This document shows positions 30,043-50,447 of a stretch of DNA of 64,000 bases, piece after piece. Made by a program: the position numbers and the translations under genes. The stretch is taken from the NCBI GenBank assembly GCA_965655095.1, contig OZ296648.1, positions 84,258,001 to 84,322,000 of the forward strand, written 5' to 3'. Source of the stretch: Haplodiscus bocki. Its lineage: Eukaryota. The number at the start of each line of letters is the position of its first letter. The first letter of the stretch is position 1. Under the pieces are notes generated by a model that did not search any database, was not told where the DNA came from, and saw only the letters and a list, made by a program, of their open reading frames with translations.

Positions 30043-32600
30043 TCATATTCGGATGGTGAGTGGGCGCTGTCCGTATTCGTCTCGAGAATTCTGAGCAGGT
30101 TTTTCTTTTGCTACGTGGAGAGCCTCCATGGTTAACAGCTTATTTTGGTAGTTGCTCGCCGCGGGTACATCAACTGTCCCATCTTGATTTCCGTGACAGC
30201 CTTGAAGGCGTTCACCAACCGGCGCCGATGTCCTTTGGTGCTCAGAGAGTCTGGTTTTGCGATGTCGTACCGTTTGGCCGACATGGTAGGAATTGCATCT
30301 CGAACAGACGATTTTGTAAGCAACCCTAATTCCGACTTCTTTTGGAATCGGGGCGTTGAGAGATAGCAACGCTGTCTCAAGTTTTTTCGTCGTGAAGATT
30401 ACTGAGCATGCAGCTATTTTTCTGAGTCTGGCAGACAGTTTATCAGATATGCGGCCTCGGTATTGAGTCACAAACCAAATTTGAGCTGGACGCGCTTCTT
30501 AGTGTTGCAATGTGGTGTCTGGCAGTGGCGCAGCCTCTTTCGATAATATCTTCTCGATCGTACTTCTGACAATAGGTGAGTAGAAAGATGGAGGATATTG
30601 GCTGGTTTCAAGGCATGTGGTAAGCTCATTTACTGCAGTGTCAAAATTGCCCCAATTCGACGTAGAATGGTGGATACGATGAATTGCGCCTTCTACGATC
30701 TTTCGTTCGCATTTTGTGGGGGAACATGCATAATAGGATAGGTAAACACCTGTGTTAGAGGGCTTGGTGTACCGGGATATGCTCAACTTGTTTTGGAAGC
30801 TGGTAACCAGCAACTGGAGCGATCCAAGTTGACTATTTGTTTCATGCTCAATTGTGAATTCAAGATTCGGATGGAGTGAGTTAGCTGTCCTGAAAATCTC
30901 GTCGCGTCTTACCGAGCGTATAATGTCGTCCACGTATCGTGCAAATATCTTCGTCAGCTCCGAAGGAGGTTCGATCTTGTTCGAGTGATGTGTTGTTGGA
31001 GAGCATCCACACGTCCTTTCGACATTTTAAACTGCGAAGTTCAGATATCGAGAGGCTAGTGCATCGGCGTTGAAACGAAACACCGCAAATTTGATAATGA
31101 ACTGAATTACGTCCAACGTTTCCGCTGCATGCCCTGCATGGAAAAGGCACATCTGCCACGAATGGAAAAAATGTCCCGGGTCTATCACTCCGCATGAAAT
31201 TTCCTCTTCATGCAAGAACATTTTCAAGCTGTTTCATCCAAACGTTTGCAAGGTAAACGACAAGTTTTGACCCCATTGCTAATCAGTCTATTAGCCTGTA
31301 CCAGGTTCCACCACACAGTATGTCTACGTTTCTGACTGCTAAGGATTGAGCTCAATAAATGTTCCCTCTGAGGTCAGGGGTGGTGTCTCTGGCGTATACC
31401 AATCAGCAGCCATGCATATGGATTCTACAACCGGTGTGTTCGTGTACAGCGATTTTACATCTAAAGACATCAGCACCCCATCATCCAGTGTTGTAGACAC
31501 CAGCTCATCCTTAATCTTGCTTGAGGTCGTTACTAACTGTGCCTCAGGTAGTTTCTCCAGCCATTTCGCTAGAGCATTAGCGGGTGGTTCAAAACAACTT
31601 CCAGGAGGGGATAGATCAGGACGTAAGGGAGTGTCTTTCTTGTGAACCTTTGTTAGTCCACAGAGGCGTGCAGGCCGTGCACCGGTGCTGCGGACTTTGT
31701 TATAAAATTCCTTATCAATAATTCCCTTCTCTTGTCAATTCTTTTAGCCTGCTGAAATTCTATTCGATCTTGCTTGTAATGGACTTTCTCGTGGTACCTG
31801 AAGGAAAAGTGTTTGACTTTACAATTTGCGGGGGAGCATGTACCCTCCCACATCCCTTTAAATTGTTATCCTCTGTCATAATGCAGTATCCGATTCCCAT
31901 ATCAAAAAGTACCGACTTCAAGCCATTTTTCTTCAGGTGAGCCAGTCTTGCTGAGGGTAAGATCAGAAGGCTGTCGTTTCGCACATTTTATATACCAAGT
32001 TGCAATAGCATTGAGATCGTCACGTATCTCAGCATCCGTGTTCTGAGAAAGAAGGAGGTCCATGTCAGCTAAGAGGTTCATATCATCAAATCTGTCTCGA
32101 ATAGGGTGTTTCGGACCGAACGATAACAAGTACAATACATAATGAGGACGGTTGATGTACAATATTCTCACAGAATTCTTGATGTCTCGTAGCTGTTTCC
32201 CCTGTATTCTAGAAAGCTCCTGGAGTTTCCTCTAATGTCGTGCGGAAATTTCCACAATCGTAAAACGACAGTGGTAGCGGATCAACAGGATAACAGATGG
32301 CAGCAACAAAACTGGACAGTTTTCCTTGAATGCACTTCGAGCATCGTTAAGCCGGTTTGTCGCATGCTCAAAAATGCTGCGAGCGTTGTTCAATTCAGCC
32401 TCAAGAGGCGTCTCTTGAAATTCTGCACAATGGTGGACTTCGAACAGCCGTTCTCTGGGATCCAGAATCTAAGAAAATTTGGGATCACATCATTGATCAA
32501 ACACTTTTCCAGAAAACCGATGCGCAGCCCAGTAATTTCAGTTTTCTCGATGCACTTGTGATACGCCAAGAAAAACCTTCACGCATTGTATAGGATCAAT
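30043..32600 (-). pseudogene. Penelope RT/GIY-YIG ORF, frameshifted
   Basis: ORF fragments 31902-32171, 30881-31195, 30499-30933 and 30043-30471 lie in collinear domain order. Confidence 0.88.
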
Positions 32601-33733: not shown

Positions 33734-33891
33734 TCTCCGACTCACTTTTAGTCCCGGAAAGATTCGTAGAGTAAAGGTGCAAAATTCATCATGGGTCGTC
33801 TGAGCTCTCTATTCAGTTTTGTATTTATCACGTCTCACAACTTCATCATTACCCAAGTAGACTTTCATCACTCGAGCCATCTTGTATTACC

Positions 33892-33996
33892 AGTAGTATA
33901 GGGATTCACATGGTTTTTCGCACCCCAATCCTAAGATTATGTCAATCTTTTCGCCGGTGAATCCCTGGACCAAAACAGGTATTTCGCGGATGAATC
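33892..33996 (+). repeat. Polinton left TIR
   Basis: The first 30 bp are identical to the reverse complement of 56749-56778; similarity continues for ~105 bp. Confidence 0.9.
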
Positions 33997-34750
33997 CTGG
34001 CTTGTAAACAAATTTGACATCTAGCCTAGGCTAGACCACTGGTATTTCAAGCTTGTTTACTTAGCGACCTAGGTGAAGAAGAAGCGTCCATTTCCGCGTC
34101 TATTAGTCTCACTCCATTCGAAGTTGGACTGCGATTCTTCTTCTTTGAAGTCGTTTTGTAGACATAAATGCAATATCTGGAACCTAACTTTTAACAAAAG
34201 ACTTTTCTACTACTAGTAAAAATTTACCGTTCTATCGAAAACTCTCTACATTAGTCAGTCTCGTGTTTCAAGATTCTTGTTGAAATTACTGCTAAAAGCG
34301 TGGATCCAAACCAAATATACACTTCTAACCAAAACTGTCAACAGTCTCATATTATAAATTTCTTCCTGAGTTTTCCTCTAAGAATGTGGTTCCAATTAGA
34401 AAACTTCTGAAAACTCTATCTCGCACAAAATTTTTGTACAAACAAATTTTGTCTTTCAGTTTTTTCAACCAACTGGGTATTATCATTTTTCATATTTTCA
34501 AAAGTTTTTCCTAGTTCCTATTCTGAATTATTTGGATTAAAAAAATTGCTATTTTCAATCGTAAAGTTTTGAGAAAGGGATTAATTTTCAAGTTTTTTTG
34601 TTTTTCAAACCACTCTCTTGGTTCCACAGTTTTTCCAACGAACAAAACAGCTAATTTTCAAACTTGAGATGGAAGAGGTACTCCTAAAAGTAAAACGACG
34701 CGTCAGCCAGACTTCAGCGGGCACAGAGAGTTCGAAGGCGGGCAACTGTT

Positions 34751-35146
34751 ATGCTAGCCGATCAAGCCGGAGATATCAAGTTTGGAGAGAAAACTAAAAG
34801 AATGGAAACACTTGCCGTGACGAGAGCTACTGGAAGTGCCTACCGGAAAAGATTCCATATAGTTTTCGGATCTTGGGATCTACAGAATATACACACTGTG
34901 CCTTTTTATGTGATTGGATTTCACGCAGGAATTAGGGTACATATCAAGCCACCACCCGAAGGAACGAGAAACCACAGTCCCTCCCCAGGAGATCAGATTA
35001 CTCCCCTCGCGCGTAAGATCTTCAACACAGCCGGCGTCGAAGACTGTTTACTTCGAAAAGAAGGTATTTGTATTTCCTCTACTGATTTGAAGTTGATAGA
35101 TGCGTTTATCCATGCATTTATGAAACTGAATGCTTCACGATTCTGA
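34751..35146 (+). CDS. Polinton accessory ORF of unknown function (131 aa)
   Basis: ATG-started open frame inside the element. Only weak PC4-like words (GIRVHIK, KEGICIS). Confidence 0.3.
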   Translation: MLADQAGDIKFGEKTKRMETLAVTRATGSAYRKRFHIVFGSWDLQNIHTVPFYVIGFHAGIRVHIKPPPEGTRNHSPSPGDQITPLARKIFNTAGVEDCLLRKEGICISSTDLKLIDAFIHAFMKLNASRF

Positions 35147-35589
35147 AGAAACATGTATTCCTCTGAATTCTGTCTTGAAACAAATTGATTTTTTATATAT
35201 AAGGACCAGACTTAAGTATAAAGCATCATTGAGGTTTAGATTGGGATTATATTCAAAAAATAATTTGAGGAAACTAAAGTTCATTTTTTTCCATTTTCCG
35301 GAACAAGTACAGGGAAAGGCTTAGTTAATGGTGGAAACTGTTAAAGTAATGCACTTCTATCAACTAATTTGTCTCTTCTTTAAGCATATTTTTCAGCACG
35401 ACTCATTTCGCAGATGCAAAAAAAACGACAGCTATCTGTCCGAAAATTTCGCCCTTGTGGTGTGTCCGGATTCGCAAAACACCTACCATTGTCATCCTCG
35501 GGGCTCTTATGCCGGATCTGCCTCGAACAATGTTGTGTAAGGCTGGAGATTTTGAAATCTTTTTTAACCGATCATCCAGTCCGCTAAAG

Positions 35590-38500
35590 AACTCTGCAAG
35601 TTCTTTTGCACAGGCTTTTCCTCAGTAACGTGTTGCTGGGGCTTTTTCCGTGCGTTGTTTCGCAGGGGCTTTTTCCGTGCGCTCTTTCGCAGGGGCTTTT
35701 TCCGTGCTCTTTCGCAGGGGCTTTTTCCGTGCGCTCTTTCGCAGGGGCTTTTTCCGTGCGCTCTTTCGCAGGGTTTTTTTCCTTCCGCTCTTTCGCAAGG
35801 GTTTTTCCCGTGCGCTCTTTCGTAGGTTTTGTTTCCGTTCGGTCTTTCGTAGGGGCTTTTTCCGTGCGCACTTTCGCAGGGGCTTTTTCCGTGCGTTGTT
35901 TCGCCGGGGCTTTTTCAGTTCGCTCCTTCGTAGGTTTTGTTTCCATTCGGTCTGTTGTAGGGGCTTTTTCCGTGCGCCCCTCCCCAGGTTTTGTTTCCGT
36001 TCGGACTTTCGTAGGGGCTTCTTCCGTTCGGTCTATCGCAGGGGCTTCTTCCGTTCGGTCTTTCGCAGGTGCCTTTTCCGTGCTCTTTCGCAGGGGCTTT
36101 TTCCGTGCGCTCTTTCGCAGGGTTTTTTTTCCTTCCGCTCTTTCGCAAGGGTTTTTCCCGTGCGCTCTTTCGTAGGTTTTGTTTCCGTTCGGTCTTTCGT
36201 AGGCGCTTTTTCCGTGCGCACTTTCGCAGGGGCTTTTTCCGTGCGTTGTTTCGTCGGGGCTTTTTCCGTTCGCTCTTTCGTAGGTTTTGTTTCCGTTCGG
36301 TCTGTTGTAGGGGCTTTTTCCGTGCGCTCCTCCCCAGGTTTTGTTTCCGTTAGGTCTTTCGTAGGGGCTTCTTCCGTTCGGTCTATCGAAGGGGCTTTTT
36401 CCGTGCGCTCTTTCGCAGGTGCCTTTTCCGTGCACTCTTTCGCAGGGGCCTTTTCTGTGCGCTCTTTCGCAGGGGCTTTTTCCGTGCGCTCTTTCGCAGG
36501 GGCTTTTTCCGTGCGCTCTTCCGCAGAGGCTTTTTCCGTGCGCTCTTTCGCAGGGGCTTCTTCCGCCCACTCTTCCGTAGCGGCTTTCTCCGTGCGCTCT
36601 TTCGCAGGGGCTATTTCCGTGCGCTCTTTCGCACGGGCTTTTTCCGTGCGGTCTTTCGGAGTGGCTTTTTCCGTGCGCTCTTTCGCAGGCGCTTTTTCCG
36701 TCCGCTCTTTCACAGGGGCTTTTTCCGTGCGCTCTTTGAAGGGGCTTCTTCCGTGCGATCATTCGGAGTGGCTTTTTCCGTGCGCTCTTTCGCAGGCGCT
36801 TTTTCCGTCCGCTCTTTCACAGGGGCTTTTTCCGTGCGCTCTTTGAAGGGGCTTCTTCCGTGCGCTCTTTCGGAGTGGCTTTTTCCCTACGCTCTTTCGA
36901 AGGGGACTTTTGCCGTGCGCTATTTCGAAGGGGGCATTCTCCGTGCGCTCTTTCGCAGGCTCTTTTTTCGTGCGCTCTTTCGCAGGGGCATTTTCCGTGC
37001 GCTCTTTCGTAGGTTTTGTTTCCGTTCGGTCTGTCGTAGGGTCTTTTTCCGTGCGCTCTTTCGCAGGTTTTGTTTCCGTTCGGTCTTCCGTAGGGGCGTT
37101 TTCCGTTCAGTTTTTCGCAAGGGTTTTTTCTGTTCACTTTCTCTGGGGCTTTTTTCCGCGCGCTCCTCCGTAGGTTCTGTTTCGGTTCGGTCTTTCGTAA
37201 GGGCTTTTTACGAGCGCTCTTTCGCAGGGGCTTTTTCCGTGCGTTGGTTCGCAGGGCCTTTTGCCGTGCGCTCTTTCGTAGGTTTTGTTTCCGTTCGGTC
37301 TGTCGTAGGGGCTTTTTCCGTGCGCTCCTCCGCAGGTTTTAATTCCGTTCCGTCTTTCCTAGGGGCTTCTTCCGTTCGGTCTTTCGCAGGGGCTTTTTCC
37401 GTGGACTTTTTCGCAGCGCTTTCTCCATGCGCTCTCTCGCACGGGCTTTCTCCGTGCGCTCTTGCACAGGGGCTTTCTCCGTGCACTCTTTCGCAGGGGC
37501 TTTTTCCGTGCGTTGTTTCGTCGGGGCTTTTTCCGTTCGCTCTTTCGTAGGTTTTGTTTCCGTTCGGTCTGTTGTAGGGGCTTTTTCCGTGCGCTCCTCC
37601 CCAGGTTTTGTTTCCGTTAGGTCTTTCGTAGGGGCTTCTTCCGTTCGGTCTATCGAAGGGGCTTTTTCCGTGCGCTCTTTCGCAGGTGCCTTTTCCGTGC
37701 ACTCTTTCGCAGGGGCCTTTTCTGTGCGCTCTTTCGCAGGGGCTTTTTCCGTGCGCTCTTTCGCAGGGGCTTTTTCCGTGCGCTCTTCCGCAGAGGCTTT
37801 TTCCGTGCGCTCTTTCGCAGGGGCTTCTTCCGCCCACTCTTCCGTAGCGGCTTTCTCCGTGCGCTCTTTCGCAGGGGCTATTTCCGTGCGCTCTTTCGCA
37901 CGGGCTTTTTCCGTGCGGTCTTTCGGAGTGGCTTTTTCCGTGCGCTCTTTCGCAGGCGCTTTTTCCGTCCGCTCTTTCACAGGGGCTTTTTCCGTGCGCT
38001 CTTTGAAGGGGCTTCTTCCGTGCGATCATTCGGAGTGGCTTTTTCCGTGCGCTCTTTCGCAGGCGCTTTTTCCGTCCGCTCTTTCACAGGGGCTTTTTCC
38101 GTGCGCTCTTTGAAGGGGCTTCTTCCGTGCGCTCTTTCGCAGGGGCTTTTTCCGTGCGCTCTTTCGGAGTGGCTTTTTCCCTACGCTCTTTCGAAGGGGA
38201 CTTTTGCCGTGCGCTATTTCGAAGGGGGCATTCTCCGTGCGCTCTTTCGCAGGCTCTTTTTTCGTGCGCTCTTTCGCAGGGGCATTTTCCGTGCGCTCTT
38301 TCGTAGGTTTTGTTTCCGTTCGGTCTGTCGTAGGGTCTTTTTCCGTGCGCTCTTTCGCAGGTTTTGTTTCCGTTCGGTCTTCCGTAGGGGCGTTTTCCGT
38401 TCAGTTTTTCGCAAGGGTTTTTTCTGTTCACTTTCTCTGGGGCTTTTTTCCGCGCGCTCCTCCGTAGGTTCTGTTTCGGTTCGGTCTTTCGTAAGGGCTT

Positions 38501-41385
38501 TTTACGAGCGCTCTTTCGCAGGGGCTTTTTCCGTGCGTTGGTTCGCAGGGCCTTTTGCCGTGCGCTCTTTCGTAGGTTTTGTTTCCGTTCGGTCTGTCGT
38601 AGGGGCTTTTTCCGTGCGCTCCTCCGCAGGTTTTAATTCCGTTCCGTCTTTCCTAGGGGCTTCTTCCGTTCGGTCTTTCGCAGGGGCTTTTTCCGTGGAC
38701 TTTTTCGCAGCGCTTTCTCCATGCGCTCTCTCGCACGGGCTTTCTCCGTGCGCTCTTGCACAGGGGCTTTCTCCGTGCACTCTTTCGCAGGGGCTTTTTC
38801 CGTGCTCTTTCGCAGGGGCTTTATCCGTGCGCTCTTTCGCAGGGGCTTTTTCCGTGCGCTCTTTCGCAGGGTTTTTTTCCTTCCGCTCTTTCGCAAGGGT
38901 TTTTCCCGTGCGCTCTTTCGTAGGTTTTGTTTCCGTTCGGTCTTTCGTAGGGGCTTTTTCCGTGCGCACTTTCGCAGGGGCTTTTTCCGTGCGTTGTTTC
39001 GCCGGGGCTTTTTCAGTTCGCTCTTTCGTAGGTTTTGTTTCCATTCGGTCTGTTGTAGGGGCTTTTTCCGTGCGCCCCTCCCCAGGTTTTGTTTCCGTTC
39101 GGACTTTCGTAGGGGCTTCTTCCGTTCGGTCTATCGCAGGGGCTTCTTCCGTTCGGTCTTTCGCAGGTGCCTTTTCCGTGCTCTTTCGCAGGGGCTTTTT
39201 CCGTGCGCTCTTTCGCAGGGTTTTTCCTTCCGCTCTTTCGCAAGGGTTTTTCCCGTGCGCTCTTTCGTAGGTTTTGTTTCCGTTCGGTCTTTCGTAGGCG
39301 CTTTTTCCGTGCGCACTTTCGCAGGGGCTTTTTCCGTGCGTTGTTTCGTCGGGGCTTTTTCCGTTCGCTCTTTCGTAGGTTTTGTTTCCGTTCGGTCTGT
39401 TGTAGGGGCTTTTCCGTGCGCTCCTCCCCAGGTTTTGTTTCCGTTAGGTCTTTCGTAGGGGCTTCTTCCGTTCGGTCTATCGAAGGGGCTTTTTCCGTGC
39501 GCTCTTTCGCAGGTGCCTTTTCCGTGCACTCTTTCGCAGGGCCTTTTCTGTGCGCTCTTTCGCAGCGGCTTTTTCCGTGCGCTCTTTCGCAGGGGCTTTT
39601 TCCGTGAGCTCTTCCGCAGGGGCTTTTTCCGTGCGCTCTTTCGCAGGGGCTTCTTCCGCGCACTCTTTCGTAGCGGCTTTCTCCATGCGCTCTTTCGCAG
39701 GGGCTATTTCCGTGCGCTCTTTCGCACGGGCTTTTTCCGTGCGATCTTTCGGAGTGGCTTTTTCCGTGCGCTCTTTCGCAGGCGCTTTTTCCGTCCGCTC
39801 TTTCACAGGGGCTTTTTCCGTGCGCTCTTTGAAGGGGCTTCTTCCGTGCGATCATTCGGAGTGGCTTTTTCCGTGCGCTCTTTCGCAGGCGCTTTTTCCG
39901 TCCGCTCTTTCACAGGGGCTTTTTCCGTGCGCTCTTTGAAGGGGCTTCTTCCGTGCGCTATTTCGAAGGGGGCATTCTCCGTGCGCTCTTTCGCAGGCTC
40001 TTTTTTCGTGCGCTCTTTCGCAGGGGCATTTTCCGTGCGCTCTTTCGTAGGTTTTGTTTCCGTTCGGTCTGTCGTAGGGTCTTTTTCCGTGCGCTCTTTC
40101 GCAGGTTTTGTTTCCGTTCGGTCTTCCGTAGGGGCGTTTTCCGTTCAGTTTTTCGCAAGGGTTTTTTCCGTTCACTTTCTCTGGGGCTTTTTTCCGCGCG
40201 CTCCTCCGTAGGTTCTGTTTCCGTTCGGTCTTTCGTAAGGGCTTTTTACGAGCGCTTTTCGCAGGGGCTTTTTCCGTGCGTTGGTTCGCAGGGCCTTTTG
40301 CCGTGCGCTCTTTCGTAGGTTTTGTTTCCGTTCGGTCTGTCGTAGGGGCTTTTTCCGTGCGCTCCTCCGCAGGTTTTAATTCCGTTCCGTCTTTCCTAGG
40401 GGCTTCTTCCGTTCGGTCTTTCGCAGGGGCTTTTTCCGTGGACTTTTTCGCAGCGCTTTCTGCATGCGCTCTTTCGCACGGGCTTTCTCCGTGCGCTCTT
40501 TCACAGGGGCTTTCTCCGTGCACTCTTTCACAGGGGCCTTTTCTATGAGCTCTTTCGAAGGGGGCCTCTTCCGTGCGATCTTTCGTAGGTTTTGTTTCCG
40601 TTCGGTCTTTCGTAGGGGCTTCTTCCGTTCGGTCTATCGCAGGGGCTTTTTCCGTGCGCTCTTTCGCAGATGCCTTTTCCGTGCACTCTTTCGCAGGGGC
40701 CCTTTCTGTGCGCTCTTTCAGCGGCTTTTTCCGTGCGCTCTTTCGCAGGGGCTTTTTCCGTGCGCTCTTCCGCAGGGGCTTTTTCCGTGCGCTCTTTCGC
40801 AGTGGCTTTTTCCGTGCGCTCTTTCGCAGGGGCTTTTTCCGTGCGCTCTTTCGCAGGGGCTTCTTCCGTGCGCTCTTTCCCAGGGGCTTTTTCCGTGCAC
40901 TCTTTCCCACGGGCTTTTTCCGTGCGCTCTTTCGCAGTGGCTTTTTCCGTGCGCTCTTTGGCAGTGGCTTTTTCCGTGCGCTCTTTCGAAGGGGACTTTT
41001 TCCGTGCGCTCTTGCGAAGTAGGCTTTTTCCGTGCGCTCTCTCGCAAGTGCTCCTTCCGTGCGCTCTTTCGTAGGGGCTTTTTGCGTGCGCTCTTTCGCA
41101 AGGGCTTTTTCCGTGCGCTCTTTCTAGGTTTTGTTGCCGTTCGGTCTTTCCTAGGGGCCTTTTCCGTACGGTCTTTCCTAGGGGCCTTTTCAGTTCGGTC
41201 TTTCGCAGGGGCTTTTCCGTTCGGTCTATCGCAGGGTTTTTTTCCGTTCATTTTTGCAGGGGCTTTTTCCGTGCGCTCTTTCGTAGCGGCTTTTTCCGTG
41301 CGCTCTTTCGTAGGGGCTTTTTCAACGCGCTTTTTTTCGCAAAATCGCAAAGGCTCTTTCGGTGCGCTCATGCGCAGAGACTTTT
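35590..41385. repeat. 27-bp GC-rich minisatellite, ~5.8 kb (~215 units), with higher-order blocks
   Basis: Consensus TTTTTCCGTGCGCTCTTTCGCAGGGGC; common variant TTTGTTTCCGTTCGGTCTTTCGTAGG. Confidence 0.97.
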
Positions 41386-41549
41386 TTCAATGCTCACTTC
41401 CAGGTTTGAGTGTTATCTACGTGAAAAGAATAACACTTCAAAACTTTTTTTTCATCGTTTGATGAAAAAGGTTTGCATAATGTTTGGCGCAAATCCTTTC
41501 ATACGATAAAATATTACTCATTATCGCTTGAAATTATTACAACTCTTCC

Positions 41550-44500
41550 TCACTTGGGTTGGGAAACATCCGAAAAGGAGGGAGACGTCAGCGGCGAAAG
41601 GTCATTTAAGGGACTACAGTTGATTGTCACATCATCATAGTGTGAATCGAAATCTCGAAAGGAATCTTCTTCAGCTTCGTCCTCAATGAAAGGGTTTCTT
41701 TGTCTAGGAGTTGAATATTCCGGTTTGTTCATCGAAGTCAGTGACTTCTTCCAGTTCACTTTCAGACAATCTCGATGCAATCCAGGGTCAGGAGGAGTGA
41801 ATATCTCATTTAAAATTTGTGTTTCAACTTCATGGTTGCTTCGTTCACGGTCAGCATCATAATTTGAAATCGACGGAACCTTGATACCAGGGGAAACTGT
41901 GAAGACCCGGATAAGAGTAGACCAAGTCGGACTAATTTCTGGGGCTTCCTCTCGCTCTTCATCTCCCCAGTCATCGTCCTCCAGGATTTCCTCCAGGATT
42001 TCTCTATGCAATTGCCAGTCTCTTATTTCAAAGTGGCCAAAAGGTAGACAAGGTATGCCATCGTTTTGTATAAAACGCTTGTCATCAAAAGCACTTAACG
42101 ATATTTTGTTGTTTCGAGTGGTTTGGTGATGTTTCGAACAGCCAATTCGTATGTTGTTTGACCTCATGTGCTGACCACTTAGTAGAACACGTATGTAGAC
42201 ATCATGTTTCAGTGAAGTTTGAGCGAAGCGAGATACGCCTTTTGCTGACAATTTTTGCTGGTTCTCATAAACTATTGAGTACAATTTGGGTTTGAGACCA
42301 ACGAATTCTCGGATGATTTTCCCTGCCATCTCATCTTTGAATTTGAGTATGATCATTTTGTTTGTCACAATAAAGAGGACTGTCGTTCGGATAGTTAGAA
42401 AAGTGGAAGTGGTTTTGTAGCATGGGGTCATTTGCTAATTTCTCATAGAAATCCGGTCCTCTGATCTCATAAAATAGCGAGTCGGTATAAAAAAGTGAGC
42501 AGTCGAATGTCTTCTTCATTACCAGTAAACAAGAAGCTTTTTTAATCGATTCAGACTCTTTCAAAAACCCAAGCGTCGGTTTCGGAACGTTTCATCGTTG
42601 CATCTAGACCATTTCGCTGGGACGCCTGATGAGTATCGGTATCGATTCAAACTATATCGGTGGAAAATACACCAACTCCTTTGTTTTAGTCTTAGGGGTG
42701 AAAGTAGTGATTTTGACGTTTTATGCTTACCTTGTAATGGAATTCATACATAAGGAACTTGGCAAGATCGAGTAAGCAAGCGCCCACGAGAGTTGGCGTA
42801 TCCCAGTAAATTTGTCCTCGGCGACTTGCAATTGCTACCAGATTTTCATCGAAGATGTTGATTGATTTCAACAAACCTTTATCAGAGTTTTCAAGGATGG
42901 CTTCTCTTGTCTCAACTAGTTTTACGTTTACCCTGCTTCGTTTGCTTTCAAGAGTTTTACCGTAACAAGAATTGTTCATAAGCTTATATAATGACCCTTC
43001 GAACTTATTCTTTGACTGAGTTCGCATTCTGATGTTCAAGCTGATGTAGGGATCCAACCACTTTTCTTGTTTGAACTGAAGGACCCGATGTACTTTAGTA
43101 ACTTTGAGACCAAGATCCACGTAGAGCTATAGGGTAATGTAATGAACGGTGTAATTTTCCTTCGCGAATAACGTCTGTACAAGCTTTGGCGTGGTAACAC
43201 GTCCATTGCATGCTTGATCCAATAGACCCATCTGATACCCGGACAACATATTGCGATCAATTTTCTTTTTCGTTGGAGCCAGTGGAAAGTTTGTGCATAT
43301 TGTGGAGGTAATAGGGATAGTCCAAGTCGATTTCTAATACGAAGCCAAGTTCCGAGTAGTTTGCGGTCTTAAGAACTGTGCTAAGTTCAATATCCACGAT
43401 CTCAAACTCGCCCAAAGGCAGTGGAAAATTTTGCAAGATTCCAGCGTAAAGATTGTTTGCATCCACGAGGAAACCATATGTTCTTGCTTTTGTCTCGTCA
43501 AATCCTTCCAGGTACTTGTTCATCGTTGCCAAACTCTTTGAAAACACTGAGGAGACACCCCCGTTGATCAAGTTTTCATCCATCTTCAAACGACTACGGT
43601 CCGTGAGCAATTCCACTCTTGCTTTACTAACTTTTAGGAAAGCATCGCCAGAAAGATGAGAAAACGTGTAATAGTGAGCACCATCCAATCCGTAAAAAGA
43701 GTACGTAACTTTTCGAAACTGCTCGACCACATATGCAAGTAGCAAAGTGCACGTTATTAGGTAAAGGTCGTGATAACTACCGAGGTTATCGCACCCAAAC
43801 TTTTGGAAAACTTTTGCTGCATGTTGAAAGTTCTCTGGAGTAATTGACACCTGAACATCTTGGAGAGAGTTCGTCCATTTCTCTACACTGGGCAAGGATT
43901 TTTCCTGAAATTTCTAATGTGAATCGAAAGAGTAGGGGTAAAATCCCTTTTGATGGAGAAGTTGCAAGTATTCGGAACAATGTTGAGGAAAGTATTTTCC
44001 AATAAACTGAAGTTAGCTGCAGGTGTGTAACTCACCAGTTTGTCCAGAGACGAGGCTATGAATCTAAAGGAGTCGACGAAACGTAAAAAATCATAGATAT
44101 ATTTTTCAACTCCTCGACGGTCGGTGTAAGACGCAACTCTAAGATCAATCAGAAGCGAAATGTATTTTTCATCGGTTATAGGAATGACTTGAATTTTACT
44201 ATCTTCTGGGAAAAGGTGCCGACTTTTGCAAACAAAATGTAAATCACAATACGAAAGATTATGAGCGAGTAACGGAATGTAGTTTACCGTGCGTCGTTTA
44301 AGGTTGCATTTACTGTGTGCGAAACCCAAGAACTTTCCGCTGGCATGACAGTGATCTAAAACTCTTTCGCTTTCAGCTAAACCTCTTTCACAAACCCAGC
44401 ACTGATCGGAAGGAAAGTGAGGTGACCTGTGTACACTCGACGTAATTGCTTCATTTCGTAAAAGTCTTTTGCAAGTTTTTAAGTTTTCGACGAACCTTTG

Positions 44501-45976
44501 TATAAAATTAGACGATCTTTCCAATTTGAAAAAGACAGGTTCCGGGTTGTTGTGCTCGATAACAACCAAGCAAAATCCACAAGGCTCGTGTCTCTCTATA
44601 ATGTCCCTTGAACTTCTATCAGAAGTGTGGTAACATGTTGCTGCAGGTCTGATGAGCGTTTCAAAGTCAAAATACATAACATAAGGTGCGAACCATCTGG
44701 ACTGGTAATTTCGAATATGTAGGTCATTTTTAGTTTCATCTGGTAGTTTAATAAAGGCTGCCTTGTTTTGCATGCAAGTCTCAATATGTCTTCCGTAAAC
44801 TTCAGCTGTGCAGCAAATAGAAAAGCAGTTACGGCATATTTTGCTACTGGATCGTGGGACTTGTTTCAAATTGCTGACCAAAATTTTCAAGTCTTTGATC
44901 AAAACATAGTGGTAAGCTTGACCATCGCTAAGAAGAAGGTCTAAGATGAATGGCCATTCCTGTCGTTTTGATATTCGCAGTGGAATGAGATCTTCCTTTT
45001 GGTAACGGAATACAATAACTTGAACTTTGTTGGTTGGTTGAAAGCCATCGGCATTTCGAAATCGCCAAATGGTTGTGTCATTGGTGTGGATGGACTATAT
45101 GTTTCTGGGTCCGTTCCCATTCGCCAACAAACATTTTCATACAGACTCTGAGCAAAAGTAATATGCGACGCGGCCACGTAACAATAGAGGAAGCAGTTAA
45201 TATCCTCCCGACTCCTTATGTTCAACAGGCAGTTCATACTTTGCAGGTCATTTGGCAATGCAAAGTAGGATGAACCTCAAATGGGGACGTACGACACTAG
45301 TTTACCGTAAAGACCATTGATATCTTTGAGCATCCACCCACTTCCATGGGAAGTAAAACTGACCAGAATCGATAACAACTGATCCAAAGTCGTGAAAAAA
45401 GCGTCCCCTGTGTTTCTCACCGAGATAGACTGTTTACATTTTGGAGTTCACGTGAACCGTGAGATCAGTGGCATCTTCATCCTCTGAGGCAGGTTTTTCC
45501 AATTTTACTCTTGCTGATAGCTGCACTTTTTTCGGTTCGGCTTGAACAGCTTCTTCTATAAACTCATCAATATTTTGCTTTCGGTCTACCATGAACTGTA
45601 GGAAATCATGATCACCGTTTGCTTCTAAGCAGTACATTTGCACTGCACCACCAAAAGCAGATGCTTGAGGTAGCTTGCGTTCCGAATTTTGGGTTTGCGT
45701 AAATGCAGGCAAAGATTGAACTTCTTGTAAAGGTTTATTGAAAATTTCTGTATGAGAGAAGAGACTGTTGCAGTAAATGCAGAGCTTCTGTTTTGTTGTA
45801 CCATGTTTTTCTTCAACGTGTTTTTTCATTACTGCCAAAGAGCCATTTTTGAAAGGACATCCCATGCAGTTTCCCTGCTCTGACTTCAACGTTTCAATGT
45901 TATGAATATTGTGCAGATGCCGATATAAGTTTTGCTTGTTCGCAAATGTGTTACTGCAATTATCACAGTTTATCAT
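41550..45976 (-). pseudogene. polB: Protein-primed family B DNA polymerase with N-terminal C2H2 fingers and an endonuclease VII-like insert, frameshifted
   Basis: C2H2 fingers (45434-45976); GSSYFALP..CFLYC; YFDFET (ExoI); CWVC..DHCH.SGKFLG.AH..CNL (EndoVII-like); HNLS.DLH; FVDSFRF; DANNLY (motif A); KLMNNSCYGKT (motif B); YTDS (motif C); KFKDE..FVGLKPKLYS..KGV..FDDKR. Confidence 0.95.
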
Positions 45977-46623
45977 GTTTTCCGCTGCTGAGTTTATTGA
46001 ACTGAATTTGAAAATTTGAGAAAGTATTTATGTTCTCCCATTTTGTTTACGATCTCTGTTTTGTTGACTAACGCTGCAAGCTAAAAGTGGGTCATCTTAT
46101 CAAATGCGTAACTACTGCAGAAGTTCTGAGTGTTTATGATAGTGTATTTCGTCTTCATCTGGAGACAATTACCTCTCGTTCTTTTCTTTGTTCAAAAATA
46201 AACTTTTGCTGATCGCTTTTGCTCTCCAGTCACCACCTTTACTACTCTGCACCTCAACTATGACTAGCTTCACACGCGCTATTTCTTTGAAGTTTGTTTA
46301 TTCTGATTTTACTGCCATCCGCTTACTGTAAAATACGCCTGAGTGGCTGCATTTTTTTGTTTTAGCGGAAGAGACACTAATTGTTTTTATACTAGTAATC
46401 CTCAAAGTGAAAATTAATCTAACTGAGGAAATCAAAAAACGTATAGAAAAAATTTTCTTGTTGAATATCGGATAATGTAGATGACAATCATGAATGTATC
46501 TATCCAATATAAGATAATTCAGAGTTCGGAAAGATCTACTGTCTTTACTTCTGGTGAGAATGTGGAACGGTATTCTAATTTCTTTTTTGGCGCTGGAGGA
46601 CATTCAGGAGAGTAGCAAGGCCT

Positions 46624-47052
46624 TCATTTTACAGGAGTTTCAAGATGATTGAATTCTGTACTGTCCTCATTATAATCTTGATATGCAGGTATTGGAAATG
46701 GAGATGACGGCGTTACTGCTCTCAGACGTGGAGACTGCGAGCTGCTAACTATCTCCCAAGACCACTCTAACGTTTCTAAGTCCGAAATATAACCCAACTG
46801 GTTCTCGGATAGGGGTATGTCTCCACAATCGAAACGGAATAAGACTCCGCGAACACTAACAGGTAATTCGAAACGGTCAACATTTGTACGTACATGAAAA
46901 TTATCCTCTGCAAGAGCCACACTTCCCAAACTGTTTACAATGTTAGGTGGGACGCTCTTGCTCTTCAGCAAACCAAATATGTCTTTAGGTACGGATATGC
47001 AGTTTTCGACGCTCCACTCCACATTCGATTTCTTTTCTCTGACAATCATCAC
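46624..47052 (-). CDS. Polinton accessory ORF, unknown
   Basis: 142-aa open frame upstream of polB; no motif recognised. Confidence 0.35.
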   Translation of the reverse strand: MMIVREKKSNVEWSVENCISVPKDIFGLLKSKSVPPNIVNSLGSVALAEDNFHVRTNVDRFELPVSVRGVLFRFDCGDIPLSENQLGYISDLETLEWSWEIVSSSQSPRLRAVTPSSPFPIPAYQDYNEDSTEFNHLETPVK

Positions 47053-47750
47053 CGATTCATTAAACCAAGTTTCGTAAAAAGTTTAACGATAGGAGCAAAA
47101 AAAACTAGTGAAGGTTTGAACCTCTAGTTTCATTCTGTGAATAATAATTGTATACAATCTTTAATATTTGAAGTTAGATTTCGTGTAGTATCGAAAGTGT
47201 GAAATCACTGTAAAAAGAAGAAATTTTTTTAGAGGTACCGAGTTATCAATTTGACGACTTATTGAAATTTAACTAGTTATCGAGAAAGGGAAATTAGAAG
47301 GGTGACAAAATGAAATGGGTTTTTTTACTTTACATGTAATGTCTAGACAGTAGACATTTTTTTTGCATGTATTGTCCAGACCTTCCAGGTTTAAGTTGTT
47401 ATAGATTTGTTTACCTGTCGTATAACGAATAATGGTCCTGATTCTGTCATTTAATCACAATCAAGGTTTTTGTGTAGGCGACAGAAGAACTTTTTCAAGG
47501 AGTAAAACAAGTCCCGGCACGTTCCTGTTTTCAAAGTATTTTGACCTAATTTTTTTTCCATTTTGTTTGCCAATTATTATCGCTGCTTGTAAACAAAATA
47601 ACGGTTCCCTTCTAACATTAAAGTTCCAGCCCTATTTATCAAACATTCTCTGTCTGGTTTTAATTTAACAGCTTAGGTCATTTAACTTCTCACGTTCCCT
47701 AGAAAACAGTTTCCTGTTCTAATTTGCTAATTTGCCCAACTGCTCATAAA

Positions 47751-48077
47751 ATGAATCGTCCATTCTTTGCCGTCACTGATAAAGATTTCGGAGATAGCTG
47801 CATCCATATTTCGGGAACTGAGAGGCGTCTCATACCAGTTACCACGAAAACCTATTCCAACAGGGGGGCCTACTTGTTTCCGAAACTTTTCAAAAAAGGA
47901 GTTGATGATGAGTACTATCTTGATCAACGACTTACACTCACTGCTTCTGAGTTTCACCAGTTGACTAACAATGAAGAGAATATTGGAATGCAACCAGGAC
48001 CCGAAGAGGAGGATGTAATGCCAACTATCAAGCGAGCGGAGCCATCTAACAAACAATTTCTTAAAATGCCCAGATGA
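47751..48077 (+). CDS. PC4-like ssDNA-binding protein (tentative)
   Basis: ISGTERRLIPVTTKTYSNRGAYLFPKLFKK..YYLDQRLTLTASEFHQL matches the PC4 beta-strands-then-LTxxEFxxL pattern. Confidence 0.45.
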   Translation: MNRPFFAVTDKDFGDSCIHISGTERRLIPVTTKTYSNRGAYLFPKLFKKGVDDEYYLDQRLTLTASEFHQLTNNEENIGMQPGPEEEDVMPTIKRAEPSNKQFLKMPR

Positions 48078-48640
48078 TGTTCTTCTGGCAGTAACTCTAT
48101 ATAATATTTCATTTAAACGTTTTTGCCAGTGAACATACATCTTCTTTCATCAATTCATTTTTAAATGCCAAGAACATTTTTTTCTTTTTGAGACGGTAAG
48201 TTCGTTCCGTGAATGTTACCAAATGTGAATTAGTTTTTTCTCAGTTTCCCAAAAATGGTTGAGGCTATGTACGAACAAACGCCCGATATCTTCATGAAGT
48301 TTCGGAAAAACTTTCGTTATCTCATTTGTTTGGAACAACCGCGTGTGGAGAAAGATTTCGAAAACGACATCTGTTATGCCTTTGGTCTGCACTCTGAAGA
48401 AAGCGAATACTGTGACATTGAGCAAAAACATTATAATCTTCTGGAATCAAGCTCCAAATTTCAAAAGCAGGGAAAAGGGTAGGCTGTGCCATGTATATAT
48501 TCAACTTTCTCGTCCCTGATACACACTACTAATTATTTAGAGTTGAACGGTGATACAACTGAAAAACTTAATCGAGCTGTATCAAATAATAAGAATCCGG
48601 ACAGCAGGAGCCCATTTTTCAGAAAAACGAAATGAACACG
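48070..48640 (+). pseudogene. Polinton accessory gene, probably spliced, with LxCxE motif
   Basis: ORF 48255-48482 is flanked by GT-AG intron candidates at 48196-48244 and 48479-48540. LICLE is encoded at 48321-48335. Confidence 0.4.
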
Positions 48641-48903
48641 CAAACGAGTCCCCGTAGTGAGAAACTGTAACGAAAAATTAGCGCAAACCAGCGACTTGTC
48701 TCGAGTTCTTCTCAGTAGACTAAATCTGAAACTTGATTGTCATCATGCAGCCTTATTTTATGGAAATGTTGATATTTTCAATTCTGGCTTTGGTACTAAA
48801 AACAATGAGTTTCTAGCCTTTCATTTTGATTCATCCTGTCCAGCAAAAAAACAAGATTTTGAAAACTGGGTAATTTTAACGTGAGTGAAGATAAGTATAA
48901 CTT

Positions 48904-49323
48904 TTATAAAAGTTTTACAAATCTTAATAAGCGTTCATCATCGATTAGCGTTATTACAGGGTAGTAACCACTGGAAACATAATGAGCAATGTATATACAA
49001 TAAAGTCCATATAAGTTCGATGTAGGCTGTTGAAATGGTTTTTGAATTAGTTTGACAACTGAAATCTGGATAGGTAAGGCGCTCATTAACTTTCTTGAAG
49101 GCATCCAGGAGTAAGCCCAATGGGTCACCGGATAGGTAGATTGCGCCTTTGTTGCATATCGAGAGCCAATGCTTCCATTCCTCAAAAGAATTTTCGGAGT
49201 TCACAATAAGGAAAGTGTCGTCCTTGAGAGGTATAGGAATTGTATCTGCAGAGAATACCCCCAGGAGTCTATGTCTAGGTACCTACATTTCGTTATCTGT
49301 AGTAAAATTGCGGTACGATCCAT
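48904..49323 (-). pseudogene. Adenain-like cysteine maturation protease
   Basis: LGVFSAD..FLIVNSE..KHWL (His), DPLG (Asp), QQPTSNL(Y)GLYCIY (Gln/Cys motif with the catalytic Cys mutated). Confidence 0.88.
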
Positions 49324-50447
49324 CAACGCCTGGTTTCCAGCTTTGTGTTCAAGAAAGTATTTTTGGAAACCTTTCGAGAGGAGTCAATGTAAAGAGTAGA
49401 AGAACGTTCACCTAGCAAAAAACTTGTTGTCCAAAAGCTAGAGCTTCGAGCAAATTAGGGTAGAGTTTCTTATCATTCTCTGTTTGAAGAGGAGTTCCGG
49501 CAACAGGATAACCGTTAAGATAAACTGTAATGCTGTTGAGATTGAATTTGTGGAAATGGAAAAGATTTACACGCTTGGCTCCCAGAAAGCCCTCGTTTGT
49601 TGCCATAGCTATTGCAAACCTTCGAATGGGCTCCCTGGTGAAAACATCTTCGTGACTTCAACTCTGCACACCCTGTGGAAAGGAGAAACGTTTTGGGTAT
49701 GATCTCAGTATAATATCTCAATAGCTGTGTAAACGTTGTCACTTACTGTCATTTTTCGAACGTATAAATTGGCTTGTAAAATCTCGATTTTATAATCTTT
49801 TGTTTCATCATCGTAAAATAATGCATATTCTGGTCGGTTTCTGAAGAACGAGATTCTCAGTGTAACTCCACTTATCAGGTGTTTATCACATGAAGAAAAG
49901 TCCGACGCAATTCTTCCAATGAAAGATAACTCTGCGGACTCCCGAGTTTCAGCTGCCCTTGTAATGAAAACTGTTTTGGTTGAGTCATCAGGTTGCTTTT
50001 CATAAGAATATCCCTGATATTTCAACCAAGTATCTTTAGTTTCCTTGTTGTGCGAGAAGTCTGTTTCAATTAAAACTTTTTGAGCGTAAATGCCATTAGC
50101 AGAAATTTTGATGCCATTCGCAGTAACACTGGGCTCAGAGAAAAGAGAATGTAGAGTATTATTAACAAAGAATGGTGCATCAGCTGCCGCAGCATTCCTT
50201 GCATCGTATTCCAGTTTGTCACCATTAGGTCTGAGAATCCTACATTTTACCTCGAGATAGATGTTTGTAAATTGATGAAATGGGTTCGATCTCCAACCAC
50301 TTCAAACTCTAGTGTCGGTCCATTTGGAGCATATACTCGATCAATTTTCAGCTCGAATGATGTATTGAAAGTAATCAAGAGAGGGGGACGTTCGAAAACA
50401 TTCTATGAACTGTGTGACGCTTCAACGGGTAATACGTTAGGTAACAT
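49323..50447 (-). pseudogene. Major capsid protein (double jelly-roll), disrupted
   Basis: PTLEFEV..IYLEVKCRI..FVNNTLHSLFS; YQGY; DKHLISGVTLRISF.RN..ANLYVRKM; FHFHKFNL..YLNGYPV. Apparent deletion before the C-terminal GERSSTLYIDSSRKV. Confidence 0.88.

Follow-up and report, generated by a model that had tools for sequence, protein, structure and literature searches.

The element and its polymerase gene

The window (the whole stretch of 64,000 nucleotides analysed) holds a Polinton on the minus strand whose protein-primed-type family B DNA polymerase gene (pPolB) is interrupted by an insert. Terminal inverted repeats (TIRs) and a target-site duplication (TSD) delimit the element, and the features used below are:

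33892..56778, minus strand: the complete Polinton, about 22.9 kb long, bounded by TIRs that start AGTAGT (33892-33950 and 56720-56778)
33886..33891, again 56779-56784, plus strand: 6-bp TSD ATTACC in the flanks of the element
52107..52529, minus strand: integrase fragment, also part of this element, from a match to Pfam rve
42731..45976, minus strand: pPolB exon 1, with zinc fingers, an endonuclease-VII-like stretch and the DNA_pol_B_2 region to motif B; frameshifts and stops in the window copy
42956..42985, minus strand: KLMNNSCYGK upstream of the insert, from the translation, which we take to be motif B of family B polymerases
42725..42730, minus strand: donor-like GTAAGC directly 3' of the exon end AAG, from the copy alignment
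42523..42730, minus strand: phase-0 insert of 208 nt (184-208 nt across the family), likely a U2-type intron, in a decayed copy
42523..42537, minus strand: pyrimidine tract and acceptor position, from the copy alignment; the window copy has a CTG end
41517..42522, minus strand: pPolB exon 2, beginning VMKK and holding motif C; frameshift near 42365 in the window copy
42478..42489, minus strand: motif C site, YTDS in the window copy; homologs and less decayed copies have YSDTDS

The window copy and three sister copies are bounded as Polintons (Mavericks) are, by TIRs and a 6-bp TSD, and the family has the protein-primed-type family B polymerase and the retroviral-like integrase of these elements. 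Pfam DNA_pol_B_2 matches the upstream piece of the window copy with an E-value of 7.6e-06, just under the curated cut-off, and the less decayed copy L063 with 1.2e-15 (PF03175); the integrase domain PF00665 is found in a sister copy (E 3e-09), as is a Pox_A32 match that stays under its cut-off (E 2.6e-04). Two ORFs of 439 and 140 aa have no Pfam match, yet they resemble ORFs of another element; where we call Polinton ORFs capsid or protease, these labels are presumed from gene order. The core genes other than pPolB are single ORFs in the copies on C4 and C6. Intronless core genes are a descriptive and not strictly defining Polinton trait, from which this family departs by its split pPolB.

The insert is located between motifs B and C at phase 0. 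Its borders on the minus strand read CATTACAAG|GTAAGC ... CTTCTTGTTTACTG|GTAATG, its 3' end being TGTTTACTG, and the coding sequence runs FLMYEFHYK before it and VMKKTFDCSLFYTDS after it. The three frames of the insert contain 5, 5 and 1 stops. The original prediction, made from the letters of this stretch, of a stop-containing phase-0 insert of 208 bp just before motif C is borne out, as intronless homologs (P0012, P0015-17, P0019-24, P0026-28 and others) cross the junction with a gap of 0 and the insert ends match their collinear coding sequence, as those of a U2-type intron would. The prediction mentioned neither the minus strand nor the state of the gene: compared with a less decayed copy, the pPolB of the window copy carries 5 frame changes and 5 stops and is dead. 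This copy is a fossil in decay, and its TG end arose either in it alone or in a sub-lineage.

Given the local composition, GT and AG would occur at two fixed ends with a chance of 0.0034, and GTRAG plus YAG with a chance of 5e-5. The recurrence of the splice signals across copies and families is a stronger control than these figures.

Candidate splice signals in sister copies

Sister copies were sought in the same genome (G000), where 40 of 93 candidates were scored and the best 30 fetched. The insert is spanned by all 40 scored copies and ends in AG in 27 of the 30 fetched ones, so that the alignment of sister polB genes proposed with the original prediction turned out in favour of an intron. 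At the 5' end, GT is found in 28 of the 30 fetched copies (GTAAGC in 24, GTAAAC in 3, GTCAGC in 1; two are non-GT), in keeping with the GTRAG-like donor of U2-type introns; the weaker donor GTAAAC belongs to subfamily B, described below. The 3' end is CAG in 26 copies, AAG in 1 and CTG in 3, the inserts ending in TG being those of the window copy and of a tandem pair (L012/L013). With a pyrimidine fraction of at least 0.64 in 28 of 30 copies, a tract followed by YAG characterizes the family but not the window copy. A CTCAA located 23-33 nt upstream of the 3' end in 25 of 30 copies is a weak, uncontrolled branch-point candidate, and a second AG lies within 30 nt of the insert end in 10 of 30.

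The insert lengths leave a remainder of 0, 1 or 2 on division by three in 10, 12 and 8 of the 30 copies, respectively, and every frame contains stops. Short internal repeats of the insert were taken as chance. The hexamer GGTAAT at the acceptor, invariant in 30/30 copies against 0/920 other 6-base windows, was likewise judged to be within chance. A GT-AG intron is present in one ribosomal-protein gene of the host.

Selection and recent activity with the insert in place

Two young subfamilies, each represented by copies on three contigs, were compared: subfamily A (L004-L006) with an insert of 198 nt and subfamily B (L009-L011) with one of 184 nt. Fixed differences between them comprise 14 synonymous and 14 nonsynonymous changes in exon 1 (dN/dS 0.26, p 6e-4) and 15 synonymous and 14 nonsynonymous changes in exon 2 (dN/dS 0.25, p 3e-4). 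Both exons are under purifying selection in these subfamilies, with a dN/dS of about 0.25. Between L005 and L009, the 750 exon codons are free of indels; the insert has two, one of 12 nt and one of 2 nt. Within the insert, 5 of 182 sites differ between A and B (0.027), which is below the pS values of 0.041 and 0.074, although numbers are small; this low divergence counts against over-reading and would also fit a regulatory element.

In L005, L006 and L009, at least 576 open codons precede the donor and 337 follow the acceptor. The three least-decayed copies are flanked by distinct 6-bp TSDs of their own, and the intron was therefore copied along with the element. Since L004-L006 differ mutually by only 0-1 synonymous changes in 750 codons, this activity was recent. 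The gene, though split by the insert, was thus functional.

Diverged families and a probable single gain

Among the 120 homologs of the exon-1 piece that were listed, ten from other assemblies (P0001, P0003, P0004, P0007-P0011, P0013 and P0014; 66-92% identity) end 10-49 residues past the junction in unrelated tails. These tails start with V-S in 8 cases, V-G in 1 and M-S in 1 before they diverge, which is the translation expected from GTRAG-type donors. The C-halves of the split homologs each form an ORF of their own, about 336-360 aa long and starting at the same Met; N- and C-halves are found on contigs of equal size, which suggests that they share a contig. The DNA itself covers the window's family only, and intron ends and lengths in the other families were deduced from proteins. 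Fitting the two frames to each other gave 115 nt for P0004, P0135 and P0137 (20-nt overlap), 91 nt for P0142 (62-nt overlap, with the first residues assumed) and 67 nt for P0167 and P0170 (20-nt overlap), and CAG is allowed in each of these. Such fits of at least 20 nt were obtained for 6 of 18 pairs; the other 12 either lacked the motif, failed to fit or fitted over 7 nt, as happens by chance. P0369 reads FLFQ|VMK, which fits a pyrimidine tract followed by CAG.

A tree of the N-half was built from the 380 residues before the junction of 43 hand-picked homologs and two ORFs from the window's genome; split and unsplit labels were set beforehand, and fragments and frameshifted homologs were left out. 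The 11 split rows are nested among 34 unsplit ones and are accounted for by one change, with a support of 100/99. A quick tree of the C-half (10 split versus 18 unsplit) agrees, with an SH-aLRT of 98. Both trees were midpoint-rooted. As several successive sister groups are unsplit, a single gain is the simplest reading. The intronless sister family is also present in the window's genome. No full-length protein of the split clade was found among 15 matches (of which P0401-P0405 are off the tree) or among the 120 listed homologs; this absence is weak evidence against an intron.

A scan of IMG/VR with the exon-1 piece confirmed no relative. A metagenome scan with P0246 kept 80 of 107 loci, all distant, with best segments of 29-59% over partial matches, and no member of the intron clade was recognized among these 80: most cross the site ungapped and the rest are partial or give no match, with the exception of L137. 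The P0246 family itself is not evident in the window's genome, where its best matches are the window's family, at 61-62%.

At L137:146-251, a distant metagenomic pPolB carries a different GT...AG insert of 106 nt in phase 2, four codons upstream of the site discussed here. It is likely an independent intron, and such gains thus probably recur. Separately, one intron-bearing family (P0135-P0139 and P0344-P0348) is represented in several assemblies by stand-alone contigs of 15,258-15,348 bases, which are either unit-length free genomes or collapsed repeats.

A probable inherited spliceosomal intron

Together, these observations indicate that the insert is likely an ordinary spliceosomal intron of the U2 type, with GT-AG ends, and that the ancestor of this Polinton clade likely acquired it in one event (probability about 0.9). 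Of the two alternatives offered by the original prediction, the comparison of copies, the selection on both exons and the single clade split at the same codon favour the first, a true intron. That the insert is spliced is inferred from sequence evolution. The element would be transcribed in the nucleus by host RNA polymerase II, and the host spliceosome would join HYK to VMK, yielding a polymerase collinear with its intronless relatives. An unspliced message is predicted to reach a stop at most 49 codons into the intron and to lack motif C, the aspartates of which are catalytic in family B polymerases. After the single gain, the interior of the intron would have drifted freely between families. 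If the polymerase can be made only after removal of the intron, the clade would depend on splicing in the host nucleus.

As an intron it looks unremarkable, and it shows no sign of regulation. We consider it unlikely that it serves, like the IVS3 intron of the P element, as a host-controlled switch, with tissue-specific or piRNA-guided retention, in a nucleus-transcribed lineage that may still spread as a virus; one member family does occur on the stand-alone contigs of 15,258-15,348 bases. This idea has no direct support, and the unconserved unspliced tails argue against a repressor product. If it were true, retention would give a polymerase without motif C and would confine the replication of this Polinton clade.

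Origin of the splice sites

Compatible with an inherited intron is a more specific proposal, namely that an ancient insertion duplicated the 6-bp sequence AGGTAA and thereby created both splice sites, an introner-like gain. The original prediction had noted GGTAA at both junctions, extending to AGGTAA if the acceptor AG is restored, and AGGTAA indeed stands at both ends in most copies, a pattern compatible both with a target duplication of 6 bp and with a proto-splice site. The junctions of the family fit the arithmetic of a duplication exactly, and in L042, a diverged member of the intronless sister family, the junction is AAG|GTAATG. However, the exon ends in A and not in G in 23 of the 24 sister-family copies that span the site: most read AAA|GT, AAG|GTA occurs in 1/24, and two more are split matches. 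L042 is 86-88% identical to the other copies of its family, most of which read AAA|GTT. Moreover, in other intron-bearing families the first codon of exon 2 is deduced to have C or G at its third position, neither a donor element nor a TIR is left, and a Lys-Val-Met site combined with the usual donor would give the 6-mer by chance in roughly 1 of 10 cases (a rough estimate). A duplication of AGGTAA is a tentative explanation that we hold to be somewhat less likely than not. The sister-family sequences likewise do not bear out the suggestion in the original prediction that the intron was gained at an AG|GT proto-splice site.

Alternative explanations of the insert

A split polymerase would do without splicing. 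The insert would then be an intergenic spacer in which the N-half terminates, the C-half would be made separately from the ATG at codon 2 of exon 2, and the two chains would associate. That ATG indeed lies 3 nt into exon 2 in 30/30 copies, and in other families it starts the C-half ORFs that were called; selection on both halves would be expected either way, and the insert does not diverge more than synonymous sites. Yet the same Met (VMK) is present in intronless relatives, so that it is ancestral and needs no special reason, and a Val precedes it wherever this is visible (the window's family and P0369). The N-half tails, unrelated as they are, nearly all begin with V-S or V-G. The pyrimidine tract and CAG adjoin exactly the codon at which collinearity resumes, what is conserved is precisely the set of splice signals, and no TAAATG-type start is seen at the exon-2 ATG or at the other gene starts examined. 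With these points against it, we regard a split polymerase as very improbable. Poxvirus-type TAAATG starts are absent at the gene starts listed for the window's family.

Still less probable is the second alternative of the original prediction, a transposon-like insertion with a target duplication of 5-6 bp that inactivated the gene and mimics an intron. The dead window copy with its TG end would suit it, as would the AGGTAA found on either side of most inserts, but the insert is neither private nor dispersed: it is carried by 40/40 scored copies, including young ones with long open exons, and both exons are under purifying selection with the insert present. A search with the insert alone, in which 40 of 62 candidates were scored, placed 40/40 scored matches inside pPolB (37 coincide with the list of sister copies and 3 others lie in a pPolB context). 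This result, with 22 candidates unscored, answers the question raised earlier of whether the 208 bp are an independent repeat: among the 40 scored matches, no dispersed copy at an unrelated site was found. TIRs were absent from the insert ends of the two copies examined, and a pattern for the insert-free junction had 0 matches among family members, compared with 16 for a control acceptor pattern.

Translation of the insert by stop read-through or ribosomal frameshifting, for which the 3n length and single in-frame stop of the subfamily A inserts might speak, and self-splicing are equally remote, as the net length change of 14 nt between subfamilies (three copies and three contigs each) combined with the selection on the exons excludes read-through and any single frameshift, subfamily B being 3n+1 and other copies 3n+2 so that no single recoding rule fits, and as Rfam gave 0 matches at E up to 5 in 661 bases, hence no ribozyme structure, while introns of group I or II are longer than 67-115 nt.

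Comparison with known systems

The statement in the original prediction that Polinton core genes are normally described as intronless agrees with the consulted parts of two sources: no introns are reported for 134 intact vertebrate Mavericks (PMC8097293), and the core genes of nematode Mavericks are called intronless, with introns in cargo genes only (10.1101/2022.07.12.499685). Vertebrate and nematode Polintons share with the window's family TIRs, a 6-bp TSD, pPolB, an rve integrase, a putative A32-like ATPase and other core genes that are single ORFs. As far as those parts go, their core genes are intronless, whereas in the window's family pPolB is split in every scored copy, the youngest included.

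Introns are known from other settings. Dinoflagellate maverick-polinton-like elements contain, according to the sections of PMC11957031 that were available, mobile, high-copy introners, mostly inserted after integration. They resemble the present case as spliceosomal-type introns within Polinton-like elements; unlike these mobile introners, however, the intron of the window's family is non-dispersed, confined to one codon and inherited through the diversification of the family. The DNA polymerase gene a185r of chlorovirus PBCV-1 has a spliceosomal intron (PMC7019647, in part), and, as presumed for the clade described here, this dsDNA virus needs nuclear splicing to make a family B polymerase; PBCV-1 differs, however, in being a giant virus that lyses algae, and its polymerase is of another class. 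Ginger1 transposases have 1-4 introns (excerpts of PMC2836005), and the third intron of the P element, IVS3, is regulated, its retention truncating the enzyme to a product that acts as a repressor (excerpts of PMC7776569). As described there, both are DNA-replicated mobile elements that keep GT-AG introns in a key enzyme. The splicing of IVS3 is regulated, while the intron of the window's family is without sign of regulation and its unspliced tails are not conserved.

Among the openly accessible article texts covered, none was found that describes a fixed intron in Polinton pPolB, and the portions consulted of PMC10748475, PMC12220804, PMC8502044, PMC11296320, PMC6431247, 10.1101/809541 and 10.64898/2026.10.13.758929 mention no such intron. 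What we describe is likely an intron of a common type, well supported by its evolution, whose unusual aspect is the gene in which it lies. Annotation pipelines call an element intact by its intronless ORFs, as stated in the consulted part of PMC8097293, and clades with a split polymerase would consequently be filed as dead. A required intron, if true, would imply nuclear transcription and host splicing and would provide a sequence marker for the site of Polinton expression. It would also offer a single, datable gain of an intron by a gene of viral type whose intronless sisters reside in the same genome, and reads across the junction would serve as a copy-independent RNA assay of polymerase expression.

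Other features of the element and its surroundings

The right end of the element (window 56573-56768) is an inverted repeat with arms of 49 nt that are 96% complementary, a possible hairpin. Tandem repeats that are richer in GC and strongly skewed occupy about 6 kb within the element (window 35500-41450), with several open frames (KKPLRKSAR, KERTEKAPA-type); these repeats are shorter in sister copies. Beside the element, window 30043-32231 holds decayed fragments that we take, from our own reading of the translations, to be those of a reverse-transcriptase/endonuclease-type retroelement.

Inside the element TIRs, an ORF for a uS5/RPS2-like ribosomal protein (PF00333 and PF03719) is found at L063:5266-5769 (minus strand), at L067:3583-4149 (plus strand) and at about 34694-35146 of the window (plus strand). 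It is about 35% identical to the host gene, occurs in many copies of the element and differs strongly between subfamilies. At about 2.236-2.315 Mb of C6 in the same genome (L162-L165), tandem units of about 2.45 kb each carry a uS5-like piece.
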